Assembly: GCA_020137815.1 (NCBI GenBank) | Contig: CM035362.1 | Span: 1,178,001-1,242,000, forward strand | Origin: Hormiphora californensis | Lineage: Eukaryota; Animalia; Ctenophora | DNA length: 64,000 nt | Direction: 5' to 3' | In this document: positions 3,054 through 56,506 of the stretch, piece after piece | How the letters are laid out: the number at the start of each line of letters is the position of its first letter | How positions within the stretch are numbered: position 1 is the stretch's first letter | Notes under the pieces: model-generated | Told to the model about the DNA's origin: nothing | The model's database searches: none | The model's input: only the letters and a program-made list of their open reading frames with translations | Made by a program: the position numbers and the translations under genes

Positions 3054-6000
3054 TTAAAGTTTCGCTCCAGTGAATTTGATCAGTCCATCGGTGCTCATAG
3101 ATTTAGGTCGCTCCAAAGGCAGTCCAAGAGCTCGGTCCCAAACCTGCGAGAGGGGAGTGGGATTAGAGATGGGTGGGATTAGAGAGGGGTGGGATTAGAG
3201 AGGGGATAATAAAGTGATAGAAAGATTAGTAAGATCTAAAAGGACTAGAACTGAAGTGAGAGAAAGAGATGTATAGAGAGATAGATAATAGAGTGTAAAG
3301 ACCAGGCCAGGCCGGAGGCCCAAGTGTTAAAAACTATTTTAGAAACACGCACACATAGAGAACAAGCAGCAGAAGCGTCGAGCAATTTGGAGCTCTACTG
3401 TACATTTAATTACCGGAACTCGAAAAGAGTCATTAACACGACTATAAATTAAGTAATAACATCAGCGTGAATAGTGAACTGTTAGTATGCACTATGGTAT
3501 GGACTATCAATTATTCTCTATTAAATTAGAAGGGGAATGAGAGGGTAGAGGAGGGATGGGAAGGAATGAGGGTATCAACTTACGAGGGAAGAGAGGACTC
3601 CAAGGGCACGAGATACTCCAAACATAACGGTATAATAGCTCATCTCGTTCAAGTTGTAGTGCTGTGAGGGGTGGAAGGGGTTAGTGGTGTAATGAGACGG
3701 GGGGAAGTAGCCAAGATAGGGATGATAATAGTTCACTTTGGATGTGGACATTTGAATGAGTTAGTACAGTTTCTATTACAGTTTCTAGTACAGTTTCTAG
3801 TATAGTTTCTTACCTGTAGAAGAACACCAGAATGGGCATCAACATTGGGCCAGGGGTTCTTGGCCTTACCCTGCTCCAACAAAACACCAGGTACAATACT
3901 GAGGGGGAGAGGAGTGTTAGTGAGAGTGGTACTTAGAGCGAGGGAGTCAAGAGTATTACTGAAAGGGATGTGTTAGGGTTGACACAGAAAGAAGAGAGAA
4001 GATTGTTAGAGGTATAGCACACAGTAGTTCCTTCTCCTTATCTTACTTGTAAAGTTGAGAAACAAGTTTGAAGAGCTCATCATCAGGTAGATGTTTCAGG
4101 GCAAACTCCCTCTGACAGGTATATCGGGGATCGGTCTTTCGGAGGACAGCATGACCATATCCAGGCACAACCTGATTGGAATATTGTGTAACGAACAGGA
4201 ACAATCTTATATGGATATTCAGCAAATATTAATACGTCGCTTATATACTTTGAAGTACGATGTCAAATTGTCAACAATTCAATTTGTAACGAATTCTTCA
4301 AGTTTCAACCCACCTGTCCTGATGCGAGAGTGTTCCAGATAAAGTCCCTCATGTCAGCATCAGATACACCATCACCAACCTGCTCTCGCAGCTTGGTCAA
4401 CCAGACAAGCACCTGATGGGGAGATGGGTTTAGTTGGAGGTGCAAACTGTATCCATCATTGACAGATGGAAAAGTTCTGGGGGATATAATCAGTTTGCCC
4501 ATAAAGCAAACAAATCACAATATATTTCCAATATTTGTGGAAATTGAATTGTCTGTAGGAAGAAGACTGTGAGGCACTTTTGTCATTCATAGCAACTCCC
4601 ACGAGTAGAGGGATCATAGACTCCCTATAATGATACCCCCTCCCGCCCCCCCTCCTTATTAAATGAAGTGGTACTGTTACTACCGATCACACCGGCGTGT
4701 TACTAATGCAGGAACTGCAACCGGCGTGATAGAAGTGTGTAGGGAATAATGCGGGGTAAAATGTAAAAGGGCAAAAAGGGGAACATAGCATGTTTACACA
4801 GGATACCTTGCTTTTGGGCACTGCCCCCCCCCCCCCCCCGGCCCCCAGTACAGTATTTAAAGTGTGCGGAAATTACCTAGCATCTACCCAGCGATCTAAT
4901 TAGCTTATTAACGATATAATTAGCCAATTAATGACCTAACCATCTAATTAACTAACTAACGAACCTCTTGGTTGGCGAGTCCGTGGAGGGGTCCAGCGAG
5001 GCCGTTCATACCAGCAGCGAAGGACAGGTAGGGGTCAGACAGGGCGGATCCCACCAAGTGGGTTGTGTGAGCTGACACATTGCCTCCTTCGTGGTCACTT
5101 GGAGGGGTAGGGGGGATTAGTAATGATGAGTGGTTAATGAACTAATTAACAAACTAATTAATGAACTAATTAAACAACTAATTAAACAAATAATTAACGG
5201 TTTAATTACCTGTGGATGGTAAGGTAGAGCCTCATGAGTTCAATAAACTGAGCATCATCGAATCCCATCATGTTGGCGTAGTTGGCACTCCAATCTTTGG
5301 AAGGGTCAATGGGGGCAACCTGCAATTAGGGGGATGGAGGGGTCAATAAGAATTAAATAGTAGTTAATTATTAACTACTTAATTGAAAAAGAAGTTGTCT
5401 CTTCAAGGGTTTTGGTGAGGGTCTGAGTGGTAAACCTACCTGTCCGTCCTTGAAGGTATTCCTGTAGATGGCGGCAGCAATGACTGGTAGTTTAGCAATC
5501 AGATCCATAGCGTCCTCGTAGCAAGTCTGGAAGGGTGGGAGGGTGAGAGGGAGATTGTGAAATATAATAATTTAGAATGTGATGTGTATAACATGATAGT
5601 ATAATGAGAGAATCGAACTTGGGAGCCATGTTGGTAATGGCGGAGCCCTTGGTTGGTTAGTGCTTTGCTTGTTTCAAACATTTTCCCGAAAGTATTACTT
5701 ACATCCCAGTATTTGGTCTTGTGGACTCCATCAGCGTATGCCTTAGCGAACTTGCTCTCAGACTGTAGGGCAGTGATGGCAGCGCTGAACTGGGACATGG
5801 GGTGGAGGGTGGAGGGGAAGTTCTTGATCATGGAGGCAACATGTGAGGGGATGTCAGCCCTGGCTGCCCATTCAGAGGATAGAGCTGCAACCTGAGGAGG
5901 AAGGGTGTTAGTAAGTACCTCGACCAAAACGCGGCGTTTTTACGTCAGCCGACCCGAAACCGGATTAAATTTGGCCACCCGCTGGTCTCAGGGCCTCCAA

Positions 6001-9000
6001 ATATGTCAAAATATGTCTGAATTGTCATTTGGGATCATGCAGACCTTTTAATTACATGTAATTACCCTTTAATTACATGTAATTACGCTTTAATTACATG
6101 TAATTACTTCCAATTACATTCCAATTACTTCTGCACCTCGAGAGCTTTCGAACGCACCCTAGAACACCTTTCTACTCCTTCCAATTGCCGAGTTCTGTAT
6201 ACCCCTTATTTTGACTGTTTTTCGCGTCCTACCCCTTATAGGTTTGGGTATGGCCATCGCCACACCCCCTATACGTCGCGGGACCTCGAGACCTTTCCAA
6301 CGAGCCATAGAACACCTCCCTACTACTTCAGGGGGCTTCAAAACTTTCACTCTAAAAATATCTATGGTTTATGGTTTATGGTTTATGGTTTTACTAGTTA
6401 CCAAAACGCGGAGTTTTTACGTCAGCCGACCCGAAACCGGATTAAATTTTGCCACCCGCTGGTCTCAGGGCCTCCAAATGTGTCAAAATATGTCTGAATT
6501 GTCATTTGGGGTCATTTAGACCCTTTAATTACATGTAATTACCCTTTAATTACATGTAATTACCCTTTAATTACATGTAATTACTTCCAATTACATTCCA
6601 ATTACTTCAGCATCTCGAGAGCTTTCGAACGCACCCTAGAACAACTTTCTACTGCTTCTAATTGCCGAGTTCAGCATACCCCTTATTTTGACTGTTTTTC
6701 GCGTCCTACCCCTTATAGGTTTGGGTATGGCCATCGCCACACCCCCTATACGTCGCGGGACCTCGAGACCTTTCCAACGAGCCATAGAACACCTCTCTAC
6801 TACTTCAGGGGGCTTCAAAACTTTCACTCTAAAAATATCTATGGTTTATGGTTATGGTTTACCTCGACCAAAACGCGGAGTTTTTACGTCAGCCGACCCG
6901 AAACCTGATTAAATTTGGCCACCCGCTGGTCTCAGGGCCTCCAAATATGTCAAAATATGTCTGAATTGTCATTTGGGGTCATTTAGACCTTTTAATTACA
7001 TGTAATTACCCTTTAATTACATGTAATTACATTTTAATTACATGTAATTACTTCCAATTACTTCAGCACCTCGAGACCTTTCCAACGAGCCATAGAACAC
7101 CTCTCTACTCCTTCTAATTGCCGAGTTCTGTATACCCCTTATTTTGACTGTTTTTCGCGTCCTACCCCTTATAGGTTTGGGCACACCCATCGCCACACCC
7201 CCTATACGTCGCGGGACCTCGAGACCTTTCCAACGAGCCATAGAACACCTCTCTACTACTTCAGGGGGCTTCAAAACTTTCACTCTAAAAATATCTATGG
7301 TTTATGGTTTATGGTTTACCTCGACCAAAACGCGGAGTTTTTACGTCAGCCGACCCGAAACCTGATTAAATTTGGCCACCCGCTGGTCTCAGGGCCTCCA
7401 AAAATGTCAAAATATGTCTAAATTGTCATTTGGGGTCATTTAGACCTTTTAATTACATGTAATTACCCTTTAATTACATGTAATTACATTTTAATTACAT
7501 GTAATTACTTCCAATTACATTCCAATTACTTCAGTACCTCGAGAGCTTTCGAACGCTACCTAGAAAATCTTTCTACTCCTTCTAATTGCCGAGATCTGCA
7601 TACCCCTTATTTTGACTGTTTTTCGCGTCCTACCCCTTATGGGTTTGGGTACGGCCATCGCCGCACCCCCTATACGTCGCGGGACCTTGAGACCTTTCCA
7701 ACGAGCCATAGAACACCTCTCTACTACTTCAGGGGGCTTCAAAACTTTCACTCTAAAAATATCTATGGTTTTATGGTTTTATGGTTATGGTTACTCGACC
7801 AAAACGCGGAGTTTTTACGTCAGCCGACCCGAAACCTGATTAAATTTTGCCACCCGCTGGTCTCAGGGTCTCCAAATATGTCAAAATATGTCTAAATTGT
7901 CATTTGGGGTCATTTAGACCTTTTAATTACATGTAATTACCCTTTAATTACATGTAATTACATTTTAATTACATGTAATTACTTCCAATTACATTCCAAT
8001 TACTTCAGCACCTCGAGAGCTTTCGAACGCACCCTATAACACCTTTCTACTCCTTCTAATTGCCGAGATCTGCATACCCCTTATTTTGACTGTTTTTCGC
8101 GTCCTACCCCGTATAGGTTTGGGTATGGCCATCGCCACACCCCCTATACGTCGCGGGACCTCGAGACCTTTCCAACGAGCCATAGAACACCTCTCTACTA
8201 CTTCAGGGGGCTTCAAAACTTTCACTCTAAAAATATCTATGGTTTATGGTTTATGGTTTTATGGTTTTATGGTTTTTTTTCATCTGGTATTAAGGGCCTG
8301 TCGGCTCGGCCCCGTTGTTTTAGTTTTAGGGGGGATGTTTTAGTGGGGATGGGTTGAGTTTGGGTTATATTCGGGTCGGGGGGCCTTGCCAGGCCCCGAA
8401 TCGACCAAAACGCGGAGTTTTTACGTCAGCCGACCCGAAACCGGATTAAATTTTGCCACCCGCTGGTCTCAGGGCCTCCAAATGTGTCAAAATATGTCTG
8501 AATTGTCATTTGGGGTCATTTAGACCCTTTAATTACATGTAATTACCCTTTAATTACATGTAATTACCCTTTAATTACATGTAATTACTTCCAATTACAT
8601 TCCAATTACTTCAGCATCTCGAGAGCTTTCGAACGCACCCTAGAACACCTTTCTACTGCTTCTAATTGCCGAGTTCAGCATACCCCTTATTTTGACTGTT
8701 TTTCGCGCCCTACCCCTTATAGGTTTGGGTATGGCCATCGCCACACCCCCTATACGTCGCGGGACCTCGAGACCTTTCCAACGAGCCATAGAACACCTCT
8801 CTACTACTTCAGGGGGCTTCAAAACTTTCACTCTAAAAATATCTATGGTTTATGGTTATGGTTTATGGTTTTATGGTTTTTTTTCATCTGGTATTAAGGG
8901 CCTGTCGGCTCGGCCCCGTTGTTTTAGTTTTAGGGGGGATGTTTTAGGGGGGATGGGTTGAGTTTGGGTTATATTCGGGTCGGGGGGCCTTGCCAGGCCC

Positions 9001-10283: not shown

Positions 10284-13200
10284 TCATGACCGTCGTTTCA
10301 GTGTGAATTTACCCTTTTGTAATTGGGAAATTGTGATCTTCAGCTTTGTCATATCAGTAATCTTCTTCACTACAATATCACTGAGGGAAAGAGGGTCATT
10401 CAATTATTGGGATAAAATAGTCGAGTGTTGTATAGAGTTGTGAAGAACACAGCAAGAGGTCAGTACCTGGAACAGATTGACTGAATGACAGCAGGTAGTT
10501 TCCCCTGTTCCCTACTTTCCACAAACACATTCTGATATCGCCCATACCACTTTCTCTCGTAGTAAAGTCTGCCATCTTCAACCTAGCAGAATTAGCTATT
10601 TGTAAAAAAGGAAAGTAAGAGATCCCCGGGCCCTTTATTATTACAAGTAGGCACGGCAGTATGACGTGACTCAAATGGTTGTATTAGAGCAACGGACAGT
10701 AGAAGAGAGTGTTAAACTAAAACAGCACTGAAGTTTCATGAAGTGTGCTATTGAGCTAATGTTTGTGTTACACCTATATTTCCGGTACCGGCATTTTGCA
10801 CACACACGGCACACACACCTACCCATACACACACCTATATAACGCCCAGTCACACACAATGAAACATTGTGGCCCTCCAGATGTCTTAACATAGCTGCAC
10901 TCTTTTCTTCCGTGTGTGTAATAGTGTCACTATTTCGTGTAAAATTCCCTCAATACTCTCACTGACTCTCTCTCTCTCTCTTTCCTCTTCTAAATCTCCC
11001 CTCTCTCTTCAACAAGGAATAATCTAGCAGACCTGCTTCTTACATCTTAGCATCATACAATCTCACTATAACTAATACTCATGCATGAATAACAAGATAG
11101 AAATGGTTTGATTTCCCTAAAGAATTATTATTAACAGGTTGTGAATATGTGAAACCTGTACAGCGTACCTTGATGTCGGTTACAGGGCGTTCTCTGTGTT
11201 CAGTTTCCTCACAAAAACTCAGGTTGGCTTTCCGTTCTCGTAACCTCTCAGCTTTATGAGGCGGGAGAATCTGACGTGGAGAGGAGTTTGGTTATTTTGT
11301 TGTAAAACTCTTCAAACCCGTCGTGTACAAGGGAAGATCACCAAGTCTAACTGCTACTCATGTTGTTCTAAATGCAGCCTCTTACCTGGAGTAGATCTTC
11401 CTCAATCTCAGCATCAGAAAGAAGGAAATTGATGGCAGGAGAGGGAGGTTTATTGCTCTTTCCATCATCCTTATCCTGATGTAGAAATAGGAAGATGGTT
11501 AGTTTTATGAAGGAGTAACTTTAAAGACCCGGTATGTATCCACTCTCTACCCTACCTTAAATGAATTTGCACTGCTACGTGGTTTTATCAGTAGGGAAAT
11601 GAGATACTGGACTCAGATTACAGAAAAAGGAATTAGAAGTAGCAGCAAGAGAATGGGGATTATTTTACACTATCCAAATTCCACGTTCTACCACGAGGGA
11701 TGGAATGGTAGTGATGTGGTGCTGAACTGAGCTTCGCTCTTCTTGGCGCCATATCACTACAAGCCCGATCAGTCAACCTCCGCGTCGGTCCATCCTGGAA
11801 ACGTACTCCGTGTGTGTGGTCCGGTTTTTTGCTCGGGGTTGGGTGGTCTTTGGCCTTGTTGTGGGTGGTCGTGCTCCTGGTTCCGGCCGAGATGGGCTCT
11901 CTGTCTTGGCGGGGACTGGGGTGCGGTCGTCTTGGGCGGGGTCGGGGTCTTCCCTGTCCGTCGGGTGGGGGATCGGGCTGTGTGCGTGTTGTGCGGCTAA
12001 TGACTGCGGACGTGAGCTGCTATCTCCCATTAAGGGAGTAAATTAAACGCCAGAGAACTAGCCTCGCTCAATATTGGCACCGAGGGCCTCTGCCTTGTAG
12101 GCATGCCTGTTGACCCGGCAGCTGTAGCCTTTAAGACAGCCCTTCAGTCCAGCATACCATTGGTAGGACGGAGGTTACCTTCTCTCGCAAAAAATAGGGG
12201 TTATTCCCCTGGGGAACCTCTGCCCAAATTTTTGCCACATACTACCGTGTGGGGCAATAAAAATGCCCCCCCAGGTCTACCATAGTTGCAGAAATCGTGG
12301 AGCGCTAAAATTTGGTTCAGTAACTCTATGAGACAAATAAATAACTTGACCAAAATTTCAGACCTCTAGCTCAAAATTCATTTTTTTGATCGGAATGAAC
12401 ATTGTCATTCATTCCAGGAAAAAATATTTTCCGGTTCAAATTTTAACCAATTATGTTTGGCTATCGATTAGCTTTCCAATGTGACCAAGATCAGCTAAAT
12501 TGGACAACCACAAGAGACACAGTGTCATGTTTCTTAAAGTTAGTCAGGTCATGTGATCTTCACTGATTCGTTGATCGTGTTCAGTATTACGAATTGGTCT
12601 AAGTGGTAGAGAATCACGTATCACATCTGCTAAAGAGGGATGACGATGCTGATTGGTCATGAGATCTGTAGCTCTTTGATAAATGTCCTCTTTCCTCGAA
12701 TCACATCACCCTGTATTGGTACACATACCCAATTAGCGGCCATGATACGAGATTCCTTTGCCCATTGGCCCGATTAGCAATCCCGGAAACTCAACGATTC
12801 GGTGAAGATCACATGACCTGACTAACTTAAAGCAACATGACACTGTGTCTCTTGTGTTTGTCCAATTTAGCTGATCTTGGTCCCATTGGAAAGCAAATCG
12901 ATAGCCAAACATAATTAGTTAAATTTTGGACCGGAAAATATTTTTTCCTGGAATGAATGACAATGCTCATTCCTATCAAAAAAATGAATTTTGAGCTAGA
13001 GGTCTGAAATTTTGGCCAAGTTAGTTATTTGTCTCATAGAGTTACTGTACCAAATTTTAGCGCTCCACGATATCTGGAACTATGGTAGACTTGGGGGGGC
13101 ATTTTTATTGCCCCACACGGTACCTTTGCAATATCTCGCAAATTAAAAATCAAATATTCCACTGCACGGACTACTATACTGCTGGAAAACCTACTACAGG

Positions 13201-16200
13201 CTACCCAAACTAAACCAAAGAAGTATTAGTTTTTTGATTCCGAAAATATGCCTAAATTCAAATTCCTCTCTCAGCCCTAGATGTCCTTGCAAACACAGCG
13301 AATAATATATATGTACTCCAATCTGCTTCAGATTGAGAGATAAGGATATGTGATCCGTAAAGCCTACTCACAGGAGGGCGCGAAGATACTTTTATAGAGC
13401 TAAATACCGCGTGGCCCAAATTAAAGGGAGGGTACGTTGGCCTTCTTTTTACCCAGAAGTTTAATTTCAATCACTCTGATATTTTGACACAATGTCTGCA
13501 TGGGTACTCATTCGAGGAATCTGAAGTTTCAGCCCTCTGGATAAAAGTTCATTTTTTTCGACAGAATGAACATTGAATGAACACCAATATGGGGCCATAT
13601 TTCGGTACCAGAGTTTCACAAATTTGTTTGGCTATCGATTTCCTTTTGAATGGGACCAGTTTGAGCTTAATTGGATCACCACAAGAATCACAGTGATCCG
13701 TTTTCTAAGCCTAGGGTAAGTCATGTGATCCCCATCAAATTATGACGTGTTAGCAAGAGAGCTTACATTTTAACGGATGCTGTATCGGTACACCATCCTC
13801 ATTAGCAGACGTGATACGTGATACTCGACCGTTACACCTGCTTATTGGCACTTAGTAATGACGCTATCGTCTCATTAGGTGTCAGATGACCAAACCTAGA
13901 GTTAGATAACTAGACACTGTGTCTCTTGTGGTGGTCCAATTGAGCTCAAACTAGTCGCGTTTGAAAGGAAATCAATACCCGAAGGCGACTGTGAAATTCC
14001 GGTTCTAAAAAGCATTCCTGTTTTCAAGTTCATTCAGGATTCATTCCAGTCGGAAAAATGAATTTTAAGATAGAGAGTTTAAATTCCGGCTAACATCAAA
14101 ACTGATAAAGTGTAGTGGCCGTACAGATTTTTAGCGCCTGAATTTACCGATTTCTGGTCAAAACAGGTCAAAATCGATATTTGGTAAAAAATATCATCTT
14201 TAAATAACTTATTTCACCCACTAAACTAGATTCAATTTTAATAAAAATGCAGATTGCCATTTGTTGATACTTGCTCTATTGTATGGCGGTTTTTTAAATA
14301 ATTAAATCGAATTTAATAAGGAGAAAACCTCAAAAAACCCGAAAAACGAAAAATTGAGTTCATTAATGAACTTTCAACTTTTATGATTTGAAACTTCGGA
14401 TTCCTCGAATGAGTATCCATGCAGACATTGTGTCAAAATATCAGAGTGATTGAAATTAAACTTCTGGGTGAAAAGAAGACCAACGTACCCTCCCTTTAAT
14501 TTGGGCCACGCGGTACATCACCCGAGTATCCGATAATGGATAAAGCAATGATCATCCTTATCGTAGTCCCGTAAATAGGAAGATGAACTAATCAAATAAC
14601 ACCACAAGCCACTACGCGATATCAACCACCGAGATTTGTAGTTTAAATTAAGGCCTAGCGGCCTCCTAATCGCATTAACAAATACACAAATAATGACAGG
14701 CTAGACAACCACTCGGCACATATCTCCCCCTATAGCAACCTACATGACTCTGTTTTCGTAAGCCCCGCAACAGTTGAGTACCACTTCTACTACTCCTCCT
14801 CGCACCAGTCCACATGGTACGCAAACCACTGTGTACCACCGCGAGTAACCCAGACACAATTGGCACTCCGGCCGGTGACCTAGTCACAATTGGAACACCG
14901 CCAGTGATCCAGTCGCAATTGGAACCCCGCCAGTGACCCAGTCGCAATTGGCACCCCCGCCAGTGACCCAGTCACAATTGGCACCCCTGTCACACATGAC
15001 ACATTAGACAAACTGTACTGCTTCGGCAGTGCATATACCAAACCTAACCTCGCATGGCAAAATGTAGCCTAAACAATTGCAATCCCCCCGCCAAAATCTA
15101 TGATCTGAAGAGTATTCACGAATACGAGGGGGAAATACTTATGGTGTTAATATGATCGATAAGAGCCCGTGACCACCGGGCAGGTCGAGGTCAACAGGAC
15201 CACCTACGGCCAGACATCTCTGGAGACATTAGAAAACGCAAAGTGCCGCCTCTGGAAGCTGATACTTAGCAAATGCTTGCCAGTGTGAATCGATTTAAAG
15301 CTACCGCTATTGGAAAATAGTCGCCGGACTCCCAGGCCGTAGGCAGATCTGTCATACTAAGGGTACTGACCCAAAGCCTGAGATGTGTAAGATACGTTGT
15401 CAGCGACACCGTAGTCCGCTACAGTGAACCATCGTTACATCGTATCCGGCAACCCACCTACTTCTACAGTTGCTTGCAACAGTAGTAACCAGAGACCAGT
15501 CACTCGGACAGGTAAATTCCGCCACTGTCCTTGTAATAGACGGGCGTCTACTTCCTTCGTATGCAATACCTTTCTCGCGGTGCCAAACAGGGCAGGGGGG
15601 AACTCAGCGGGCAGCAAGGAGGGGGGGGGGGAGTAAGATCCCCTATCCCCTCTGCGCGGCCTGCTGGACGAACCCAGGCTCGACTTGGAGAACACCGACA
15701 CGTGACCTTTTTGTGTGGGGACATGTGGCGAGAGGTGAATTCCTAGGGGCAGGCTGTCTCGTCTTACATGACAGCTAAGTGGGTCGGAATGTTGGGAGGT
15801 ACTAAACACACACACACACACACACGTTCTACCACGAATCAAATTCCCAGACACGGAACGAGAGCTCTAGATCTAAACACTAAAACTCTTGGTAACACTT
15901 ACTGGATCATTTTGACGTCTCCTCAGTTTTCTAGTGAATGAAGGTCTGTTCTCGAAGTTATCAAGGGGTGCTCCGTTCAACTCCGCTGCATTGTGTTCCG
16001 CTTCTATCATCTTCTTCTTTTCCTCTAAACCTGGACATTGAATCAGCTCGCGACATTTAGGACATTGACCCAACCAACCATTACCCGGACTAAAATGTGA
16101 GAATAAACATTTGAAATGTCTAATTATAATTTTACCTACTTGATAATAGGTTTTCCTTCAAAGTCACTTTCTTGTGGTCGAAATCATCCTTCAGCCGCTT

Positions 16201-16863
16201 ACTTTCCCTTTGAAACTTCTCATCAATCTGAAATTAGAAATGAACCATTAGTTATTGATTGTTGTTAGCACACAACTTAACAAATTAACCAGAGAAACTG
16301 ACAACACACTGTTCTTAATTGAATATTAGTACTGCAAAATCGTTGTTTCTCTTTACTTTAATTGACAACACACAACTAAAGGAAGACTGCAATTGACAAC
16401 TAACCATCTGTAGCTCTATCTCCTTATCAACGTGACACTTTTGTATTCTCTCCTTGTGCTGTGCCTCTAACTTGGCTAGCCTACTCAAATAACCAGGTAG
16501 CGTTCCACTCTGTAATTGTCGTAGCAAATCCCGTAAATTGTGAACTTTCTCGTGTACTGAACTAGTTTTCTCCTCAGTCTTGATCTCTGTTACGATAGGT
16601 GGTCCTTCATCAGCAGGTCTCTGATCTGGTTGGAACAGGGTTTTAACACAAGATACTAATATCCACTGGGTGACGGGTATGTACCAAAATATTTAGTGTT
16701 TTTATACAGTTATACAGTTGACCCCGGATTATAACTCCGAATTATTGGCCCAGTTTTTGCATACAATGCAATTTGTACCTGTTTCACTGGCATCTTCCGT
16801 GTCTTCAGAACTATCAACCCCTAAATCAATGCAGTCGTCCGAGTACAAATCAACCATTACCAT
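10284..16863 (-). CDS. SUDS3: Sin3 histone deacetylase corepressor complex component SDS3, multi-exon
   Basis: Exons encode [50 protein letters not shown]...[69 protein letters not shown] (stop 10284-10286), collinear with metazoan SUDS3. Start at 16863 or 16857. Confidence 0.93.
11697..12006 (+). ncRNA. HDV-like (delta-like) self-cleaving ribozyme
   Basis: P1 GGGAUGG (11697-11703) / CCAUCCU (11790-11796) with G1-U wobble; P2 CAGUCA (11770-11775) / UGACUG (12001-12006); P3 ACC/GGU closing L3 UCCGCGUC; P1.1 CC/GG (11797-11798); J4/2 GGCUAA with putative catalytic C11997. All elements are in canonical order. Folded by eye. Confidence 0.8.
12245..13120. mobile_element. MITE with ~330 bp terminal inverted repeats and TA TSD (Tc1/mariner/pogo-type)
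   Basis: TA|CCGTGTGGGGCAATAAAAATGCCCCCC ... GGGGGCATTTTTATTGCCCCACACGG|TA; arms remain reverse-complementary for several hundred bp. Confidence 0.88.
13407..14513. mobile_element. MITE with ~125 bp TIRs and TA TSD, related to the 12245-13120 element
   Basis: TA|CCGCGTGGCCCAAATTAAAGGGAGGGTACGTTGG ... CCAACGTACCCTCCCTTTAATTTGGGCCACGCGG|TA; shares internal motifs (TTTGGCTATCGATT, CACAAGA..CACAGTG, TCATGTGATC) with the neighbouring MITE. Confidence 0.88.
14843..14988 (+). repeat. ~30-bp minisatellite, about 5 copies, inside the ribozyme-capped element
   Basis: Repeated CAGTGACCCAGTC(G/A)CAATTGG(C/A)ACCCCCGC. Confidence 0.85.
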
Positions 16864-17603: not shown

Positions 17604-18037
17604 ATTGATTAAAATTGATTAAATCGGGTAGAATTAAAAGAATTATATAATAAGTTAATATCTTGTTTTTCACTCTTGTATTGTATTGTTTTGGTAAACT
17701 TATTGCCTCTATGGCCCCTTAAACTGATCACAGTTGTTCTGAGCAGGGTGAAGGACAATCGCTGCCTGATATAACGGATGGTATCAGGATAAGCCTGTTT
17801 GGTTTTGTCAGCAAGCAGCTTTGCTAGGCGCCTGTAGAATTTTTCTGCCTCGTTGCCCAGGGCACCAGTTATTGAAAACACAAGAGGGCAAAAACAGCTC
17901 TGCTCGACCTCAAGGACCCGTTCGTTATAGCACCGTTTTTTCTCGTCCTCGTGCCGTTTCAGAGCTGTGTCGAGCGGGATGGCACTGTTGGTGGGTGCCA
18001 ATGGATTAAAGATACGAACATCCGTGTAAATTTTGTC
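17604..18037 (-). mobile_element. 3' part of a CRE/SLACS-like non-LTR retrotransposon (restriction-like endonuclease C-terminus)
   Basis: DKIYTDVRIFNPLAPTN...RHEDEKKRCY...FCPLVFSITGALGNEAEKFYRRLA...IRQRLSFTLLRT continues in frame from the 20841-21400 fragment; possible TTTAATCAAT x2 tail. Confidence 0.75.
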
Positions 18038-18068
18038 TATTGTGACAAGTGAAAACAAGTTTTTTACA

Positions 18069-18109
18069 CAATCAACAAATGTTTCACGCGAATGCGATCG
18101 TCAGGATTA
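18069..18109 (-). ncRNA. Minimal type I hammerhead ribozyme in the Penelope 3' pLTR
   Basis: Reverse complement of the 20706-20746 copy. Confidence 0.7.
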
Positions 18110-18150
18110 AAAATGTAAACTTGTTTACTCGTTAACAGTCCTCTGCTCCT

Positions 18151-20185
18151 TCATAAAGTTGGATGTTTCATGAGTTTAACGGCTAGATACTTCCTCTTGT
18201 GCGGACACTTGTTTAACAGTTCGCTCTTCCTGTTTATCAGGTCCTTCCCTCTGAGGATGTGGTACTTTTCCGCCAGACACAGATTACAGGTTATATTACC
18301 AGGTTGATATGTGCGAGCTTTGGCTAATAATCGCCATGTTATGTCATGTCTTATGTCTCTGTCCTTTAGTCTCCAGACTAGTTTGGACAGTTCTGTCTCG
18401 TTTTTGTATCTGTCGTGTCTGAATGTAGTTTTGTGTGTGTTCAGTCTGGATTTAAACGTCCCCTCGGCCATTCCGACGTATTTTGACTCCTTGTTCCCGT
18501 GCTTCACAGTAGCCTCGTACACTACCCCTGTTGTTAGGCACTTTTTATTTACGGGGCATGATTCGGCTTTCCTGCAGTTGCATTCCTTTCCCTTCCCTTC
18601 ATGCATCTCTTCTGCTTTCTTCAGGAGCTTCTTGTTGGTAGCCTTGACGATGCTGTCCATGTTCATCATTGTAGAGTAGGACAATTTTACCGTCTTTTTG
18701 TTGAAGAGCCGGTGAAATGGGTGTTGGGGAGGAAAGTGCAGCCTCAGTAGGTCGAAAAACTGTTTTCCGATATCCGTAGCCACATTTTTCGAGAATGGCG
18801 GGTTGAACCAAATGATTTTTCTCGCCCTTTTCCTCTTCCGGTGTTTTCCACCTTGCTGAATTTTTGTGAACTTCATGTCAGATTTGTATCCTGCTTTTAC
18901 CAATGCCTCTTGGTAGACATCCTTGCATTCTTCGAATTCTTTCTCCGAGTGCGATAGACTGCATAGGCGGTCCTGTATGGTCCTTGGGATGTTTTTCAGG
19001 ATTACAGGTGGGTGGTTTGAGGATTTGTTCACGTAGGTGGTGTTGCTATTGGGTTTCCGGAATGGTTTGAAGGTTCCTGTCTCTGCGTTGAGAGTGACGT
19101 CCAGTATATTCACAATTTTTCCCACTTGTTCCACCGTTATTTTCATTCCGTTGTTCTTGAATAGCCGGTGCAGGTGTTTTTCAATTCGGTTTAAAAGTGG
19201 TCCGTTGCTGTTGTTGATGTATATCAAACCATCGTCTCTGTACAGTCCGCTGTGGCAACCCTCGTGGTTTGATTCTAGGTAGTTCTGGATTTGCTGTAGC
19301 AGGTATATTCCTACCAGGTCAGATGCTTCGGCTCCATCTAGTGCACCCATGGTAATATCGAAATTTTTGTCTTTTTTCCTCCACACTTTGTTGTCACTGA
19401 ACAGTACGCTCTTCCTGCATGCCTTAATCACCTCAACATGTTCTGGTGGTATGTCTGTTAGTGATTTTGCACTCTCTATTGCTCTGTCCATGAGATTTTC
19501 GGAGATTGATGGGTAGAACTCGGCAATATCAAATTGGAGTAATGATGCTTTTTCTGGTTTCGGATTTCCTTCGTGCCTTTTTTGAAACCATGATAGCAGT
19601 TGTTGGGTGCTGATCCATTGGGATACTCCGGATTTCCTCTTTACTTCTTTGATTATGCCTTCCAGAATTAGCTTGCTGGCTTTTCCCAGTTGGTTTGAAG
19701 ATGGGTTTATTAGCCTGCATTTGGGAGCATTCTGGAACCCTTCTTTGTGGTCTTTGACCGATATGAATGCTGGTGCCTCGCTATGGCATTCGATTCGGTC
19801 CTCAATTTTCAGTGTCCTGGCTTGGTTGCAAATCTCTTGGTTGATCTTTTGTAGATTGTTGTCATTGTCAATTTTGTAGTCTTTTGTAATTGTGTTGGTC
19901 AGTAGTTGTCTGTAGTCAGTCAAGCTCACACTGTACCTGTTCTGTGTTTTATCTGCGTTGAGGATGATGTTCTTAGTCTCTCTGATCTTTTTTGCCTCCT
20001 TCCCCATTTCCAGTAGCGTTGGGTCTTGAACTTTCCGGAATTCTATATTCCCTATGAGATGGTATACATCCCGTTCAAAGGGCTTTAGAAGATCGTGTAT
20101 GGGAGGAGTTTTTGTAGATTTCAGGATTTTTTTGAACTTTGTTCCTTCTTGGTCTTGGTCTTGGTCTTGGTCCGTGGTTTCCTCC
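18151..20185 (-). CDS. Penelope-like reverse transcriptase-GIY-YIG endonuclease ORF (5'-truncated by the inversion)
   Basis: ADKT, CRLINP, FDIAEFYPSI, MGALDGAE, LYRDDGL, PFRKP, YVNKSSNHPP, WFNPPFS, CNCRKAESCP, GVVYEA...YVGMAEGTFKSRLNTHK, CNLCLAEK, CPH; about 680 codons uninterrupted. Confidence 0.93.
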
Positions 20186-20705
20186 AGCTCCTGAAGAAAG
20201 CAGAAGAGATGCATGAAGGGAAGGGAAAGGAATGCAACTGCAGGAAAGCCGAATCATGCCCCGTAAATAAAAAGTGCCTAACAACAGGGGTAGTGTACGA
20301 GGCTACTGTGAAGCACGGGAACAAGGAGTCAAAATACGTCGGAATGGCCGAGGGGACGTTTAAATCCAGACTGAACACACACAAAACTACATTCAGACAC
20401 GACAGATACAAAAACGAGACAGAACTGTCCAAACTAGTCTGGAGACTAAAGGACAGAGACATAAGACATGACATAACATGGCGATTATTAGCCAAAGCTC
20501 GCACATATCAACCTGGTAATATAACCTGTAATCTGTGTCTGGCGGAAAAGTACCACATCCTCAGAGGGAAGGACCTGATAAACAGGAAGAGCGAACTGTT
20601 AAACAAGTGTCCGCACAAGAGGAAGTATCTAGCCGTTAAACTCATGAAACATCCAACTTTATGAAGGAGCAGAGGACTGTTAACGAGTAAACAAGTTTAC
20701 ATTTT

Positions 20706-20746
20706 TAATCCTGACGATCGCATTCGCGTGAAACATTTGTTGATTG
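20706..20746 (+). ncRNA. Minimal type I hammerhead ribozyme in the inverted pLTR
   Basis: Stem I UAAUC/GAUUG; CUGACGA; stem II (U)CGC-AUUC-GCG(U); GAAA; 1-bp stem III C-AUUU-G; GUU cleavage triplet. Matches the minimal hammerheads known from Penelope-like elements. Confidence 0.7.
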
Positions 20747-20840
20747 TGTAAAAAACTTGTTTTCACTTGTCACAATAGTTAAGCTCTCCGCATCCCCGGA
20801 TCGAGCACTCTACCAGGATACTAACTTCTACATCTAGCTA

Positions 20841-21406
20841 GTGTAAATTTTGTCCATAGGAAGCCAAAAATCCCTAGCAGCAACATCGAGGCGAGCATCG
20901 TTTGCAGTGTTCGCGGATTTTAGCCGGAACGTTTCGCCAGTGATTGGGAGAAGATGGGGTTCTCTTGAAACATCACGGCATCCGGCCTCTTTCAACAAGT
21001 TTGCAGTAAGGTCCCGGATCTCATTGTGTCGGAGCTGTACGTAACCGCCAAGATGACAAGAGAGGCTGTGTTCAGTGGTGTTAGGTTTTCCACACGGACA
21101 ATTTGGTGGTCTACCCTCAAGTTCCAAGCAGTAGCGGAGGGACATGGAGTCCCAGAACTCCTGTTTGTTCAGATTGAACCTATGTTCCTTGAGGGGGAGA
21201 GATGTTACCCATATGGAAGACCCTCGCCGTGTTCTCTCTTGGTGGAAACGCTGTTCGTTGGGTGGTAGTGCCTCTCTCACAAGTTCTTCAGCCTTGGTCT
21301 GGTTCAGCCGTTTGGTGGTCAACATCTCGGATTCCAGCTCCCGCTTAAGCAAGTGCAAACTCTCTGGATCAAATTTGGGAGCGGAGTCCGAATTTGTTGA
21401 TATATG
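20841..21406 (-). mobile_element. 5'-truncated CRE/SLACS-like non-LTR retrotransposon fragment (zinc knuckle and RLE start)
   Basis: SSIWVTSLPL...EFWDSMSLRY...CPCG...HSLSC...RHNEIRD...ARLDVAARDFW..DKIYT; RT domain absent. TTACTGC at 17597-17603 and 21407-21413 is a possible TSD (tentative). Confidence 0.75.
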
Positions 21407-21462
21407 TTACTGCGCGCGCGTATACTTTATTTTTAGCGCGGCTACAACTTTGCGCGTGTATA

Positions 21463-21581
21463 AAGTGCGTTTCAAACGACTTGACCTGAGATTCCTGGAA
21501 ATTCAGGATTTCCCCTTTGTAAATACACGCGCAATGCGCCGAATTCCAAGAATTACGGGTCAAGTCGCTTGAAACGGACTT
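21463..21581. mobile_element. 119-bp MITE, TA TSD (copy 1)
   Basis: TA|AAGTGCGTTTCAAACGACTTGACC ... GGTCAAGTCGCTTGAAACGGACTT|TA; near-identical inverted copy at 56388-56506. Confidence 0.88.
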
Positions 21582-22774
21582 TAAATTTTCAACATTTTTG
21601 ATATGAGTGATATGATACTTTGTCACTGGCACTCAGTGTCACTGAGTCGCTGTGAGGGATAGTGTAGCCTATCAATGGCTGTCGTGAGTTGTAGGGGATG
21701 CCAATGATGTCATTTGCAGGATTTTTAGAGGCAACTACAAGCCTTGGATCATGATTCATGTGGCACCTCATAATGTAAAGAGCAAAACACGTTGTTCACA
21801 AAATCACAAACTCAAAAAGTAAGGCATATATGTCTCAGACAAAATGTGAGATACATAACACAGCTGCTACAATTATATACACACGGGGGAACATAAATCT
21901 TCTCTTTCACAAAAATTAACTATTTCTCAACTCTGAATTTGGAAAAACCACACAATAATATCACATAGTAATTCCGTGTGCACAGCACGCAACAAATCGC
22001 GTTATAGGTAGGTAGGTACAAAACAAGTTTCTAAAATACACACAGTCTTTATAGCTCTGCAGTAGAAATAAAATCGTAAAAAAGTCCCAGGATCTGATGT
22101 GCACGTGTTAATATTCCACGTACTCCGACTGCACGTGCAATATAACCATGTTTATAAGCATCTGCAACATCTGTTCCAGCAAGATTCGTCTTCAGAGGGC
22201 GGCTGGAATCGTTTCTTTTTTGTTTGCTGCAACCGGTAAATAAACCGCTCTTGAATTATCTGGTGGAGAGGGGATGTTAAATAATGTGAAACTATGGAAA
22301 TTAAAATGTTTCGGGTTTGTGCTATAGATAAGAAAGGAGGAGTGATTGTGCTTGGAAATGCTTAGAACAACACACAGAAAGCGAATCAAACCACCCACAT
22401 TACGGTGTTACAGTCACCAGGTTTTTAACTTAGGCTTCGTTACATAATAAATACACAACATTCGACACTTGCTGACTTGTAAACACACGTGCAGTCAATT
22501 CTTATTACAATTGACAGGCTAATTGAGATTAATTGACGTCTAGTAATGACTTTGGATAAGTCGGGACTCGGGAAGGAGAGGGGAAGGGATTGAAAAGCAA
22601 ATTGAGAGAACGGGAGAGAGAGACCAGATTGTCTCAAATACTACTTATCACAAACGATAACACAAAAAGCAGGATGCACAGCTATTTCTTTGACAGCAAG
22701 AAAGAAGGACGATTTATGAATGGAGAATGAGAGTCGAACGAGAGAAGATTGTGATCTAACTGGGATTCAAGGAG

Positions 22775-22926: not shown

Positions 22927-50468
<27,542 letters not shown>

Positions 50469-52751
50469 CTAATGAATTAATTCGATAAATTGGTAACCAA
50501 GGTACAGATGTACTGGAAGAATGACATTGAATATTTAATATTTACCTTTTTGTCTTTAGATTGATTCCTCCTTTACTCGGGCCTTGTTGGTAACTCCGTA
50601 AAATATCGTTTTATCATACTACTGCATGTATGACACTAGAACAAGGATAATATCGGGTTATAGCGTGAAATGGACGATTTACAAAAAAAACAAATGAATA
50701 ATTTAAGATATAAAACTTTAGAAAGCAGCATAAAAATAGCCCCGGCCCCACGGCACAGACCTAACTACCAAACTTGTTACATATCATCAACAAAGGCATA
50801 ACAAAACAAGACAAACACTCAGTTTAATCAAACTGTGTATGTTTGAGTATTGAGGCAGTGTGTCAATTTGCAAACACGCTAACACACAAAGAGAAAGAGA
50901 GATAGGTCGATATTATTCAATCGCCTCAGTTGGATATGCAATAATGAGACACAGTTCATCTTCTCTATTCAAGAATCAGAATCGATTAAAGAATAGCACG
51001 AGACAAGCTTCTCACCATACACATACAGACTCGGTCGCTTCTTCTTCTATAAAAGTGTGTAAACCTACTATTGCTATAGAACTGTGTACATTCTAAAGTG
51101 TGTGTCTACCACCACGAGCAAAAAGGCGGCGGATAAATGTTTTGCCAAAAAAGGGCACAACTCATGAGCGACTTTCTAGACGAAGTTACAGACTCTATCT
51201 AATATCACCCTTTATTTGTTGTTGACCTATAATAACGAAGTAAATAGTAAGTTGAAGGCAGCTGTTGATGTTCTTGGAGGGGCGTGTAAAACAAACGCTT
51301 GAGTAATTTCACAGATCCACGTCTACTCTGTCATAGATTTGCGTACACACGTGTCAAAATAAGCAAGCCCTAACAGTTAGGCCGGGCGTTTCTGAATTTA
51401 TTTCACCGAGGCTTCAAATTTAACTTCTAATTTTCATGCCACTTTTCTTTAAATTTTCTTTAGTCTTCAGTTGTTTCGAATAACAAACTCGTATCAACGA
51501 TAGCAAATTCAAATCGTTTGCCACAGCATCGAAAAGATTTGTAAAGAACATGGAACCCACATGGAAATTTGTATTTTAGCATCTGATTGTGTTATTGGGA
51601 TTTCTTGTTTGTAGAATGAAAAAAAAAACAGAACGACAGGCACAGTGCACCAGAATTTTAAGGGGAGAGCGCTCCCATAACTAGTCCTTGATACTGAGAA
51701 TTATCAGCTGTACAGAAGTCAGAAATGGATGCTCTGTGCTAATTTTACGAAAAATATCACAAAGAATAATACATCATAACAAGGTGCACCAGGTGCGTGG
51801 AAGTTTGGGGGAAATTGTATTGAATGATATCTGATCAAGATTAAATAGTGAAGAAAAAAAAGAAAAATGTCTGGCGAGGGCCGGGCTGAGCCCGGCCATC
51901 GCCAGACATTGTTCTACCCCAACGACAGCTACCCCAACGACAGTTTAACTAAATTTTCCCGCGGTATATCCATCGTGTTCCTATAGTTAAGCCTTTAGGC
52001 CTTTAGGGAAGAATGGTAGAATTAACTCAATTCAATTGATCGACCAATTTTCATTAACTTTTAGCCTATTCGCTAAAATTAACGTTTTTAGGAGCTATCA
52101 TGTGTTCTCAAACCAGAGGGAAGAACTACCTCTACATGGCAGTGGACTGAGAGCCGTGAGGTAGTGAGCAGATTTCTAACTTAGTAAACAGGGTGTGAAC
52201 TGCATGTCGTGTTTGCTAGTCGCGAGCGCGCTTGCGAGACAAGCAAACACGTCTAGGTTCATTAACAAGCATGCTGCTCAGTCATTTTAGATTTAATACA
52301 CAATGTAAGGATACCATGTAATAGGTGAGACTCTTGCCGTCACCCTCGTTCAAGTCCCGTGAAAAACGGAGCAGTACACGCAAACTGATGCCCATTTTCC
52401 TCGCGTGACCCCGATTCAGCAGTTTGAGACACCAACTCTTTAGGGGGCCATATCTCAGGAACCAGACAAGATAGGAAAAATCGCCGTCTAACGAGGCGTA
52501 CAGTTTTTAATCTAGTTTACCACTGTACCGGCCGTTTCACTCTCCGACCTAAAACAAAAATCGCAACCCCACAAAACTTCAAAATAATGAAATTCGCATC
52601 TCGCATGTCGTGTTGCATGTCGTGTTGCATGTCGTGTCATGTTATTGACGCGCTCGCGTTCAACTCTCACACAGCAGCTGCAGAACATGGCGGGAAACAT
52701 CGAGGAGTAGAGAGAGGGTCGGTGCCGAATCAAATATTTCTTGATCTTGAT

Positions 52752-53340
52752 CTACTCCATCTCTCAGCTATCCTACCCCTCATCAACTCGATCTCTCAGC
52801 TACCCTACCCCTCATCTACTCCATCTTTCAGCTACCCTACCCCTCATCTACTCCATCTTTCAGCTACCCTACCCCTTATCTAGTCCATCTCTCAGCTACC
52901 CTACTCCTCATCTACTCCATCTCTCAGCTTCCCTATTAGGGAAGCATAGAGATGGAAACGATTAGGGGTAGGGAATCCCTATCCATAATCGTTTCCATCT
53001 CTATGCTTCCCTAGCCCTCATCAACTCCATCTTTCAGCTACCCTACCCCTAATCTAGTCCATCTCTCCGCTACCCTACTCCTCATCTACTCCATCTCAGC
53101 TACCCTACCTCCCTTACTCCTCTCCACTACCCTACCTCCCTTACTCCACTCTCAGCTCCACTCCCATTTACTCCATTTGTTACCTACCCCCATTTCCATA
53201 TTCAGCTTCCTACTGCCATTACTCCATCTCTCAGTACCCTACTCCCTTTACTCCATCCTCATCTACCCTTTTCCCCCATTTATCCATCTCTCAGCTTCCC
53301 CCTTTTCCTCCCTTTACTAACCCTTTCCATTCTCAGCTTC
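52752..53340. repeat. 32-bp C/T-rich minisatellite, decaying rightwards, with an embedded 77-bp hairpin
   Basis: CTACTCCATCT(C/T)TCAGCTACCCTACCCCTCAT units; hairpin at 52937-53013. Confidence 0.85.
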
Positions 53341-56139
53341 CACACTGCCGCAACATACTTCTTCTTCGCAGGACTTCTAGCTTCTCCTCACTGTGTGGAT
53401 GGTAGGTTATATTGGAAATCGTGGAAAGTATGGCATCAACATGACTGATGGAATAGTTTGATCAGGATTTAGCCGCGGTTTATTTATATCAGTGACGCAG
53501 TGACGCATGGTATACACACAATACCTGTAAGGAGCGGCTTCTTTTGGGACTACTAGGAGCACCACATTCTCTACATACACCTTGGTAGGGGCAGTCCATA
53601 GGGCCTTCCAGGGGATCTGAGAGGGGGGATTGGGTCACAGTTCTGATTTCGATAGGGGTGGCTCACATTTTGAGTCTCAGGAAGAGAAGTGTAGAAAAAG
53701 GACTAATAGAATATTAGTGCTGAGGGAATGGACGAACAAGCAAACCCATGTCAGCTATTGTGACACATCCTCTGTGTACCGCATAGAATATGCAAAAGCA
53801 ATTGACAATTACGCACAGACAGACAGACAGATAGACAAACAGACAGACAGACAGACATACAAAGTAATAGATTTATGGCATGTGTGAATAACTCATTACC
53901 AATAAATTGACTTGATAGAATCTTGGTTTCATTGTTCACACCAATAGTGTTGGAGGGTGCGATATGATATACTACCCCACCAGCCTCCACCATCTCCAAA
54001 TATGACTTGATAGAACTTTATAGCAAATTACTAATAAAATGTCATGATAAATTAATGAAACGTGGTATCGAGATGACTTGTAAATGGGATGGTATTTTGA
54101 TGTGTCACTATACTATGCATCTTATTTAATTGATTATTTAATTGTTGGGTAATTACAGTGACATTGCGTAACAAAGAGTAGTGTGCATTGTTCTACGTAT
54201 ACACAGATCTAGCGAAAGGTCAAAAGTAAACACACAGTAGCTGTCAATAGAAGCCAGCAGTATATTCAATTCAATACACGCCAGTAGTATATTCAATTCA
54301 ATACACTACATGCCAGTATACGCAATAGTTAATTCCAAGACTGTACAATGATTAACACACCTGTAGTTCGAGTGATCCAATAAGGCCAGTGTGTACAAAA
54401 ACAGGTAGATCAAGTTTAGCTAGGGCTTCTGATTTTAACCGCAGGTTCTTCAGCACAACTTTGCCTGATGGAAACATCAAATAATTAGATATGAGTTGAT
54501 CTTCAAGTTAGATTTATTGGCATGTTTTATATCCCCACTACTATTAGATCAATATCATCTCAGATTAGTTACAGGGTGGTCCAGGAAGTTATATCTAGAA
54601 AGTGGCTCCCTGAAGCACCCTGTATAATAATCACATACCACTCCATACGGCTAGTTTCAGATCTTTGCTGTTGATATCCTGAACGAACTCGCCAAGGGCC
54701 TTGTCTAGTACCGTCTCTAGCACCCTCTCAAACATCTAATGAATTAATTCGATAAATTGATAACCAAGGTACAGATGTACTGGAAGAATGACATTGAATA
54801 TTTAATATTTACCTTTGGTCTTTAGATTGATTCCTCCTTTACTCGGGCCTTGTTGGTAACTCCGTAAAATATCGTTTTATCATACTACTGCATGTATGAC
54901 ACTAGAACAAGGATATATCGGGTTATAGTGTGAAATGGACGATTTACAAAAATAACAAATGAATAATTTAAGATATAAAACTTTAGAAAGCAGCATAAAA
55001 ATAGCCCCGGCCCCACGGCACAGACCTAACTACCAAACTTGTTACATATCATCAACAGAAGGCATAACAAAACAAGACAAACACACGGTTTAATCAAACT
55101 GTGTATGTTTGAGTATTGAGGCAGTGTGTCAATTTGCAAACACGCTAACACACAAAGAGAAAGAGAGATAGGTCGATATTATTCAATCGCCTCAGTTGGA
55201 TATGCAATAATGAGACACAGTTCATCTTCTCTATTCAAGAATCAGAATCGATTAAAGAATAGCACGAGACAAGCTTCTCACCATACACATACAGACTCGG
55301 TCGCTTCTTCTTCTATAAAAGTGTGTAAACCTACTATTGCTATAGATCTGTGTACATTCTAAAGTGTGTGTCTACCACCACGAGCAAAAAGGCGGCGGAT
55401 AAACGTCTTGCCAAAAAAGGCACAACTCATGAGCGACTTTAGACGAAGTTACATAGTCCATATAATATCACCCTTTATACTTTTATATATACTTTGTTGT
55501 TAACCTATAACGAAGTAAATGGTAAGTTGAAGGCAGTTGTTCTTGGAGGGGCGTGTAAAACAAACGCTTGAGTAATTTCACAGATCCACGTCTACTCTAG
55601 CTTAGATTTGCCGCAGACACTAGACAGCGTACACGTGTATCAAAATAAGCAAGCCCTAACAGTTAGGCCGGGCGTTTCTGAGTTTATTTCACCGGGGCTT
55701 CAAATTAAATTTCTAATTTTCATGCCAATTTTCTTTAGATTTTCTTTAGTCTTCAGTCGGATCTGGTTTCAAATAACAGACTCATATCAACGATAGCAAA
55801 TTCAAGTCGTTTACCGCATTATTGAAGAGCTATGTAAAGAACATGTAGCATCTGATTATGTTATTGGGATTTCTGTTTGTAGAATGAAAAAAAAACAGCA
55901 TGACACACGCGGTGCACAAGATTTTTTAAGGGGAGAATAGTAGGCTCCCGTAACTAGTTCTTGATACGAGAATTCTCAGCTGTACAGAAATGGATGGACG
56001 GGCAGGGAAAAATATCACAAATAATAAGACACTATAACACGGTGCACCATAAGGAGGTAAGCGTGGAAGTTTGGTGGAAATTATATTGAATGAGATCTGA
56101 TCATCAGGATTAAATAGGGAAGAAAAATAGAAAAATGTC

Positions 56140-56209
56140 TGGCACGGGCCGGGCTCGAACCGATACCCTTTGGGTTTCGCAATCCATTCTTCTACCATTG
56201 AGCTACCCC
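56140..56209 (-). pseudogene. tRNA-derived pseudogene or SINE head
   Basis: GGGGTAGCTCAATGGTAGA (A box) ... GGTTCGAGCCC (B box) ... GCCA, followed by T-runs; acceptor stem does not pair. Confidence 0.55.
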
Positions 56210-56387
56210 AACGACAGTTTAACTAAATTTTCTCGCTGTATATTCATCGTGTTCCTATAGTTAAGCCTTTATAAGGAAGAATGGTAGAATTGACTCAACG
56301 AATAATTTTCGTTAATTTTCAGCCCGTTCACTAAAAATTGACGTTTTTAGGAGCTATCATATGCCCTATAACCAGAGGGAACAACTA

Positions 56388-56506
56388 AAGTCCGTTTCAA
56401 GCGACTTGACCCGTAATTCTTGGAATTTGGCGCATTGCGCGTGTATTTACAAAGGGGAAATCCTGAATTTCCAGGAATCTCAGGTCAAGTCGTTTGAAAC
56501 GCACTT
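56388..56506. mobile_element. 119-bp MITE, TA TSD (copy 2, inverted); empty site visible in the paralogous segment
   Basis: CAAC-TA[MITE]TA-CCTCTAC here versus GAAC-TA-CCTCTAC at about 52123-52135. Confidence 0.9.

Follow-up and report, generated by a model that had tools for sequence, protein, structure and literature searches.

An ORF-less element in an Sds3-family intron

The DNA examined here is a stretch of 64,000 nucleotides of the ctenophore Hormiphora californensis (contig CM035362.1 of assembly GCA_020137815.1, positions 1,178,001 to 1,242,000 of the forward strand), referred to as the window and numbered from its first letter. It carries the gene of an Sds3-family protein, one intron of which is occupied by a 4.1-kb insertion that opens with a predicted hepatitis delta virus (HDV)-like ribozyme, ends in an (AC)n tail and is bracketed by a target-site duplication (TSD). 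The insertion is a polymorphic copy of a multi-copy family devoid of long open reading frames (ORFs) and is probably a non-autonomous retroelement of the type without long terminal repeats (LTRs), with a ribozyme at its 5' end and a helper long interspersed nuclear element (LINE).

The direct repeat around about 4.1 kb reported in the initial annotation is exact (15/15 positions identical) and cannot be extended leftward; 4126 bp lie between its two copies (11697-15822), the first base being G11697. The (AC)n end also described there is an (AC)8A run that continues in phase into the first three TSD bases. Comparison of the window with itself found neither LTRs nor terminal inverted repeats at the ends of the element. 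The 351-aa Sds3-family protein (P0014) matches the window at 100% and its minus-strand exons flank the insertion, so that the element lies antisense in an intron that measures 4427 bp with it and would be 286 bp long in its absence. Pre-mRNA of the host gene contains the element in the orientation in which the ribozyme is unable to act, and this gene therefore gives no read-through RNA for this copy; an antisense position would fit selection against sense insertions.

Copies and empty sites were followed in public sequencing data by taking contigs of five DNA runs out of 22 runs listed, namely X3, X5, X7 and X13 over 11000-16500 and X3, X5, X13 and X17 over 11620-12060; X13 and X17 derive from a second organism (organism B) and X5 from another sample. 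The comparison skips the repeat 15797-15833, and the statements on tail and TSD concern the copy in the window alone. An X5 contig of depth 87.7 represents an empty allele: it connects 11696 with 15895, has the TSD only once and differs somewhat in its right flank. The flank match of organism B ends at 11696 (X13, record 2) and at 11690 (X17, record 9) and gives way to other sequence, so that the site is empty in that organism too. At the 5' junction contig depth increases 17-fold in X3, 61-fold in X5, 199-fold in X13 and 62-fold in X17, with the step at 11695-11709 in all four runs, and is back to flank level in the bin 15784-15967; such steps indicate many copies, depth being no copy number. 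At least eight contigs, in five rows of the comparison (one from X5, three from X13 and four from X17), carry foreign sequence that ends at 11696-11699, and the edge shared by the family lies at G11697, the first ribozyme base (G1), within 2 nt. The contigs of X5, X13 and X17 that end at 11699 have upstream letters in common, which suggests one old insertion present in both organisms.

Two miniature inverted-repeat transposable elements (MITEs) are nested in the element, and forms free of MITE1 (X3, X5) and of MITE2 (X5) exist among the contigs. Their removal leaves a core of 2139 bp, in keeping with the size of about 2.1 kb first proposed, but this value may be too high: depth jumps at about 12061-12078, with implied means of 3368, 69837 and 9967 against 63-141, 4652 and 0 just before, and a third, more abundant nested repeat probably starts there, which may leave a true core of less than 2.1 kb. 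Terminal repeats, inverted or otherwise, were looked for in this third repeat (12061-13190) and none was found. The internal minisatellite of the initial annotation is present with 5.1 copies, its period being 29 bp instead of 30. The last 227 nt of the element are more structured than shuffled sequences (z -3.19; 1 of 200 shuffles equally stable). Pairing of this 3' end with the head was considered and rejected, as 90% (for the core) and 78% (for P1-P1.2) of 500 shuffles pair equally well; a predicted duplex of -55.5 kcal/mol between the 3' end and the G/U-rich P4 was set aside.

The core has no long ORF and no recognizable RNA polymerase III (Pol III) head, as had been stated from inspection of the sequence. 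Its longest stop-to-stop frames reach 116-143 aa; none of 19 small frames of the element exceeds the curated cut-off of a Pfam family (best E 0.039, DUF2576), the 116-aa frame has no match among 1.84 billion representative sequences, and recognition of the element frames in the Atlas is low, with weak scores only. A tRNA head, Pol III A and B boxes and a 5S or 7SL head were sought in the element and none was found.

The predicted ribozyme head and its P4 hairpin

The base that follows the left TSD copy is G1 of a complete HDV-like fold, as initially proposed; the fold is in exact register with the duplication, and the activity is a predicted one. The helices follow the order of the HDV nested double pseudoknot and all lie within the first 310 nt. 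P1 (11697-11703/11790-11796) comprises seven pairs, a G1-U wobble and six Watson-Crick pairs, while P2 (11770-11775/12001-12006), P3 (11776-11778/11787-11789) and P1.1 (C11780, C11781/G11797, G11798) consist of six, three and two Watson-Crick pairs, respectively; P2 can be extended by three further pairs over a 2-nt bulge (11765-11767/12007-12009), as seen in the sequence. The loop L3 (11779-11786, UCCGCGUC) has the conserved bases of the HDV consensus and the junction J4/2 reads GCUAA, with C11997 at the catalytic position and the A expected in this junction. A descriptor of the fold, written from the HDV consensus after the motif had been seen, matches the window once on its two strands, with P1 starting at 11697, and matches none of 300 dinucleotide shuffles. 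Rfam returned no ribozyme for the window at the gathering threshold and five weak microRNA or long noncoding RNA matches at E<=10, none of them at the head; the miss is presumably due to the 190-nt P4.

The core positions, and likewise P2 and P3, show no change among the listed variants of the main forms in either organism. Two loose contig ends in X3, if both come from the same contig, yield a diverged P1 with pairing at 5/5 visible positions, three of them through two-sided change.

The P4 helix, inserted between P1.1 and J4/2, is extended into a hairpin of 84 pairs, nearly half of them G-U, that was missed in the initial account of the head. Its predicted stability is -103.6 kcal/mol (z -7.53; 0/200 shuffles as stable). 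It contains five A in its 191 nt (binomial 2e-21, given the A content of the window), and no 200-nt stretch of the window is poorer in A. The antisense strand gives no fold (z +0.49) and DNA parameters yield -20.9 and -10.1 kcal/mol; by these calculations P4 folds only on the sense RNA strand, and cDNA, antisense RNA and DNA are predicted not to fold back. MITE palindromes in the window are poor in G-U pairs (12/388 and 6/290; 3% and 2%).

Natural length variants confirm the pairing register of P4. In a short form (X13, X17) 11809 is joined to 11991 via four letters, leaving a P4 of seven pairs, and in a medium form (X17) 11829 is joined via 11 stem-closing letters to 11968, its predicted pairing partner, so that a series of 7, about 30 and 84 pairs stands on one core. 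An X13 joint from 11762 to 11971, whose middle is not known and which may be a misplaced medium form, was excluded. The abundant forms of organism B have P4 shortened symmetrically, the inner long stem occurring at low depth only, and since these abundant forms have a short or medium P4, the long one is dispensable for the spreading of the family. A diverged X5 contig differs from the window at 18 paired positions of the head, 13 of which keep pairing.

The most likely reason why P4 is kept, judging from the modeled folds, is that pairing in the sense RNA would hold the ribozyme core closed while cDNA, antisense RNA and DNA stay unfolded. How the helix became poor in A is a separate question, for which an origin by RNA editing appears unlikely. 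P4 would have begun as a Watson-Crick inverted repeat in which A-to-inosine edits by adenosine deaminases acting on RNA (ADAR) were fixed as G through successive rounds of retrotransposition, and base composition speaks for this: with the G-U pairs read as former A-U pairs, P4 would have had 46 A-U and 38 G-C pairs and a G+C content of 45%, near the 41-46% of the window, while reading them as former G-C pairs would demand 94%. The scarcity of G-U pairs in the DNA-transposon palindromes points the same way, as does a G on the 5' side of 4/5 remaining A. The ctenophore studied for editing has ADAR1 and ADAR2 and edits mainly in repeats (PMC9989829). Several observations do not agree with the proposal: the ADAR neighbor test is negative, a true G preceding 10/41 wobble G against 11/38 G in G-C pairs; the neighbor pattern of the remaining A has a p of 0.15; and the pair-keeping changes of the diverged copy comprise nine C/U toggles against four A/G (n=13). 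Unpaired positions of P4 are free of A as well (0/26), and ADAR is not expected to clear A from unpaired positions. A CpG-decay signature in P4 was non-significant. The corresponding conclusion, that P4 represents a heritable editing ratchet which has led to a near-A-free wobble helix formed by the sense RNA only, offering little substrate to ADAR and no fold-back in cDNA or DNA, is held to be equally doubtful; the competing view would be selection for a sense-only helix.

Table 1. Features of the element and of the flanking Sds3-family exons, in window coordinates.
Feature	Position	Strand	Remark
Left TSD, 15 bp	11682..11696	+	Single copy in empty alleles (X5, X13, X17)
Predicted HDV-like ribozyme, 310 nt, catalytic-position C11997	11697..12006	+	
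P1.2 hairpin in J1/2, 22 pairs (10 G-C, 8 A-U, 4 G-U), not A-poor	11708..11760	+	
P4 extended to an 84-pair hairpin (41 G-U, 38 G-C, 5 A-U)	11802..11995	+	
Small hairpin 3' of the ribozyme	12024..12038	+	Fold; U-A is C-G in organism B, a two-sided change
Probable third nested high-copy repeat, MITE1 inserted into it	about 12061..13190		Deduced from depth
MITE1, long palindromic arms, TA duplication	12245..13120		MITE-free joint 12242 to 13121 in X3, X5
MITE2, 127-bp inverted ends, TA duplication, internally related to MITE1	13407..14513		MITE-free joint 13404 to 14514 in X5
Minisatellite, period 29, 5.1 copies	14839..14987	+	
Structured 3' region, candidate recognition site of the helper reverse transcriptase	15596..15805	+	z -3.19
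(AC)8A tail	15806..15822	+	
Right TSD	15823..15837	+	
Sds3-family exon preceding the insertion, P0014 residues 146-188	15903..16031	-	
Sds3-family exon following the insertion, P0014 residue 189 onward	11386..11475	-	

Mechanism, alternatives and other repeats of the window

The family most likely spreads as follows. A source copy would be transcribed by RNA polymerase II, starting either outside the copy or at an internal promoter, and the predicted ribozyme would cut the transcript just before G11697, setting its 5' end at G1. A LINE protein supplied by a helper would bind the structured 3' end, the (AC)n tail would anneal to CAC at the start of the nicked target and target-primed reverse transcription (TPRT) would copy the RNA into DNA, leaving the 15-bp TSD; DNA transposons would have inserted into the element later. 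The initial idea of a non-autonomous, ribozyme-capped family that borrows the reverse transcriptase (RT) of a LINE gains from the empty allele, the multi-copy edge at G1, the MITE-free forms and the lack of a protein remnant and of a tRNA head or A/B box match, while the release from read-through transcripts that it included does not apply to this copy and its host gene.

Three other explanations, which overlap in part with the one just given, were weighed. The element may be a chimera of reverse transcription, in which the 3' end of one abundant retroelement was combined by template switching with the ribozyme head of another, the middle differing between subfamilies and the insertion still occurring by TPRT; R2/R1 hybrid short internally deleted elements (SIDEs) offer a precedent (PMC3414825). 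Within the core, X5 reaches its greatest depth over the 3' 370 bp, which are also present in X13, where 15048-15231 is not, and loose ends located before 15443 in X7, before 15452 in X3 and behind 12012-12021 (X3, X13, X17) show where relatives diverge. However, 5' truncation and old subfamilies yield an identical pattern, the loose end in X7 still resembles the window sequence by eye and contig depth is unreliable, so that a chimera is considered improbable. A decayed remnant of a LINE, either autonomous or with ORF1 only (HAL1/HeT-A type), in place of a non-coding family selected as such, would account for the A/C-rich middle of about 1.3 kb (14516-15600), and one diverged X7 contig end is open in the frame of the 116-aa ORF, by eye; this remains very improbable, with no match in Pfam, the representative library or the Atlas and a core too short for RT plus endonuclease. 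Moreover, the polymorphism of the copy and its perfect TSD indicate that it moved in its present form, apart from the later insertions of DNA transposons.

It is also possible to regard the ribozyme fold as a relic, with the 5' end set by an internal promoter or by other cutting and the head kept for protein binding. Some SIDER ribozymes fold without cutting (PMC4035085), and long single-stranded linkers combined with a short P2 slow ribozymes of this kind (PMC4908430), about 12 linker bases flanking P1.2 here. Nevertheless, P2 can gain the three additional pairs already described, foreign flanks end at G1 within 2 nt and the core positions are without listed change in the main forms of both organisms, one multi-depth contig with C11997 replaced by G being the contrary case; a relic appears quite improbable.

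Several points weigh against a mobile family with an active ribozyme and a LINE helper. X3 may be the source sample of the window and is then not independent. Other loose ends among those listed start inside the head (11749, 11786 and 11934-11976) and belong to diverged or truncated copies. The core is unevenly covered, X13 having nothing at 15048-15231 and X5 being 2-6x deeper at 15416-15783 than at 14680-15415, so that the three parts of the element (head, middle and tail) may at times move separately. In the ribozyme, the diverged X5 contig, which accounts for a depth of 658.6 out of 4651.7 there, is the one with G at the catalytic C11997; of its 18 changes at paired positions, all of them one-sided, five disrupt pairing. 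In organism B, 11754 T>C is a fixed change and produces an A-C mismatch within P1.2, and in the low-depth inner-P4 piece of the same organism 3/6 changes at paired positions break pairs. Furthermore, 11762-11770 can pair with 11971-11979 at -13.6 kcal/mol, compared with -10.6 for the P4 partner; this alternative of nine Watson-Crick pairs would compete with part of P4 and with the first P2 pair and is a possible folding switch or misfold. Lastly, no helper LINE was found in the 64-kb window.

Further searches concerned relatives of the element. A blastn comparison with the parts of the window outside it gave only short AC runs and chance words and no second copy, and pattern scans of viral contigs returned 0 matches for the ribozyme core and 0 for the 3' end. 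A metagenome pattern scan yielded nine matches, none similar to the window by blastn, which were set aside as chance. The RT-like frames at 17609-21406 were rejected as helper because they have neither a ribozyme nor an (AC)n end. They include the two halves of one minus-strand frame (17609-18100 and 20834-21406), which seems to resemble the zinc-knuckle and restriction-like endonuclease end of CRE-type elements and falls in unnamed Atlas clusters (0.96-0.97) with sponge and cnidarian members. The frame is split by an insertion at 18037-20778 with a 700-aa frame (18151-20253, minus strand) and a 593-bp inverted repeat of 100% identity (18037-18629/20186-20778); this insertion, with apparent RT and GIY-YIG motifs, is taken to resemble a young Penelope-like element, and Pfam and PDB searches gave no match for it.

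Other repeats of the window are a tandem array at 5919-8955, with five copies of 474-bp units at 93% plus partial units, a 644-bp palindromic MITE-like element at 44848-45491, a pair of 123-bp inverted repeats 35 kb apart at 99% identity (21461-21583 and 56386-56508) and a 3-kb direct duplication at 87% identity (49076-52128 and 53336-56387), whose gene region (49076-56387) is presumably VPS13-like, from its translations. An intronless MED16 frame of 804 aa (57578-59992, plus strand) is unusual beside its intron-rich neighbors; it has only four close relatives, at 46-48% identity, and its best cluster includes proteins of Mnemiopsis and Bolinopsis.

Relation to known ribozyme-headed elements

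Non-autonomous LINE derivatives with an HDV-like ribozyme at the 5' end are an established class, represented by SIDEs, NARTc and RIME, and the element appears by analogy to work like a SIDE/NARTc-type non-autonomous LINE; that the class is known limits the surprise. In ctenophores, R2 elements have been described in a text whose passages considered here do not mention non-autonomous forms (PMC13188248); related systems are reviewed in PMC6765202. Neither a ctenophore ribozyme-headed non-autonomous element nor an A-poor G-U P4 was found in the open literature searched, which excluded supplements, Repbase and Dfam.

The R2 SIDE, as well as the R2/R1 hybrid SIDE, has in common with the present element the lack of an ORF, a 5' HDV-like ribozyme, an unrelated middle, a structured 3' end and reliance on a helper (PMC3414825). 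The R2 SIDE of Drosophila is 529 bp long, ends in poly(A), is specific for ribosomal DNA and has a known helper and a ribozyme shown to cleave (PMC3414825), whereas the element of Hormiphora measures about 2 kb, has an (AC)n tail, is dispersed and bears a P4 of about 190 nt rich in G-U on a ribozyme that is predicted. NARTc, RIME and the SIDERs of trypanosomatids (L1Tc/ingi clade) are likewise dispersed and non-autonomous, with an HDV-like 5' ribozyme and TSDs (PMC4035085), and cleavage is documented for NARTco ribozymes (PMC4035085). They differ in being short and in having a compact 77-nt ribozyme, Pr77, that doubles as promoter (PMC4035085); the likeness is one of features.

The layout also recalls bipartite ORF-absent LINEs known from the RTE, Ingi, Vingi and R2 clades, which are made of 5' and 3' ends with a poly(A) or microsatellite tail and no Pol III head (PMC5786205). 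Those elements are defined by the similarity of both ends to a LINE and are shorter, and the corresponding parts of that source do not mention ctenophores (PMC5786205); here the comparison is one of layout. Members of RTE, Ingi and R2 can carry 5' ribozymes (PMC5786205). The dispersed sites, the 15-bp TSD and the microsatellite tail would make RTE or Ingi/Vingi the likeliest helper clade.

The proposed extension of ribozyme-headed non-autonomous LINE derivatives to ctenophores and to a size of about 2 kb, several times that of the R2 SIDE, would broaden the class. The A-poor G-U hairpin opens two tests, namely whether mobile RNAs keep long helices and yet avoid both double-stranded RNA editing and palindromes in the DNA, and whether retrotransposition ever fixes A-to-I edits in the germline; if the editing origin were true, ribozyme-headed retroelements would show a heritable editing ratchet traceable on the tree of copies. 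At the level of the ribozyme itself, the head is similar to drz-Agam-2-1 and to the R2 ribozymes in its nested double pseudoknot, in the P1.2 located in J1/2 and in a variable, dispensable P4 (PMC4908430; PMC3774820). P1.2 domains speed cleavage in large HDV-like ribozymes (PMC4908430), and P4 varies or is absent in R2 ribozymes (PMC3774820); an A-poor, half-wobble P4 of 84 pairs was not found in the passages considered. What is unusual in comparison with the known systems is the size of the element, its host lineage and, above all, a sense-only A-poor P4 with a natural length series, which, standing on a conserved core, provides a ready test of the effect of a peripheral helix on cleavage.

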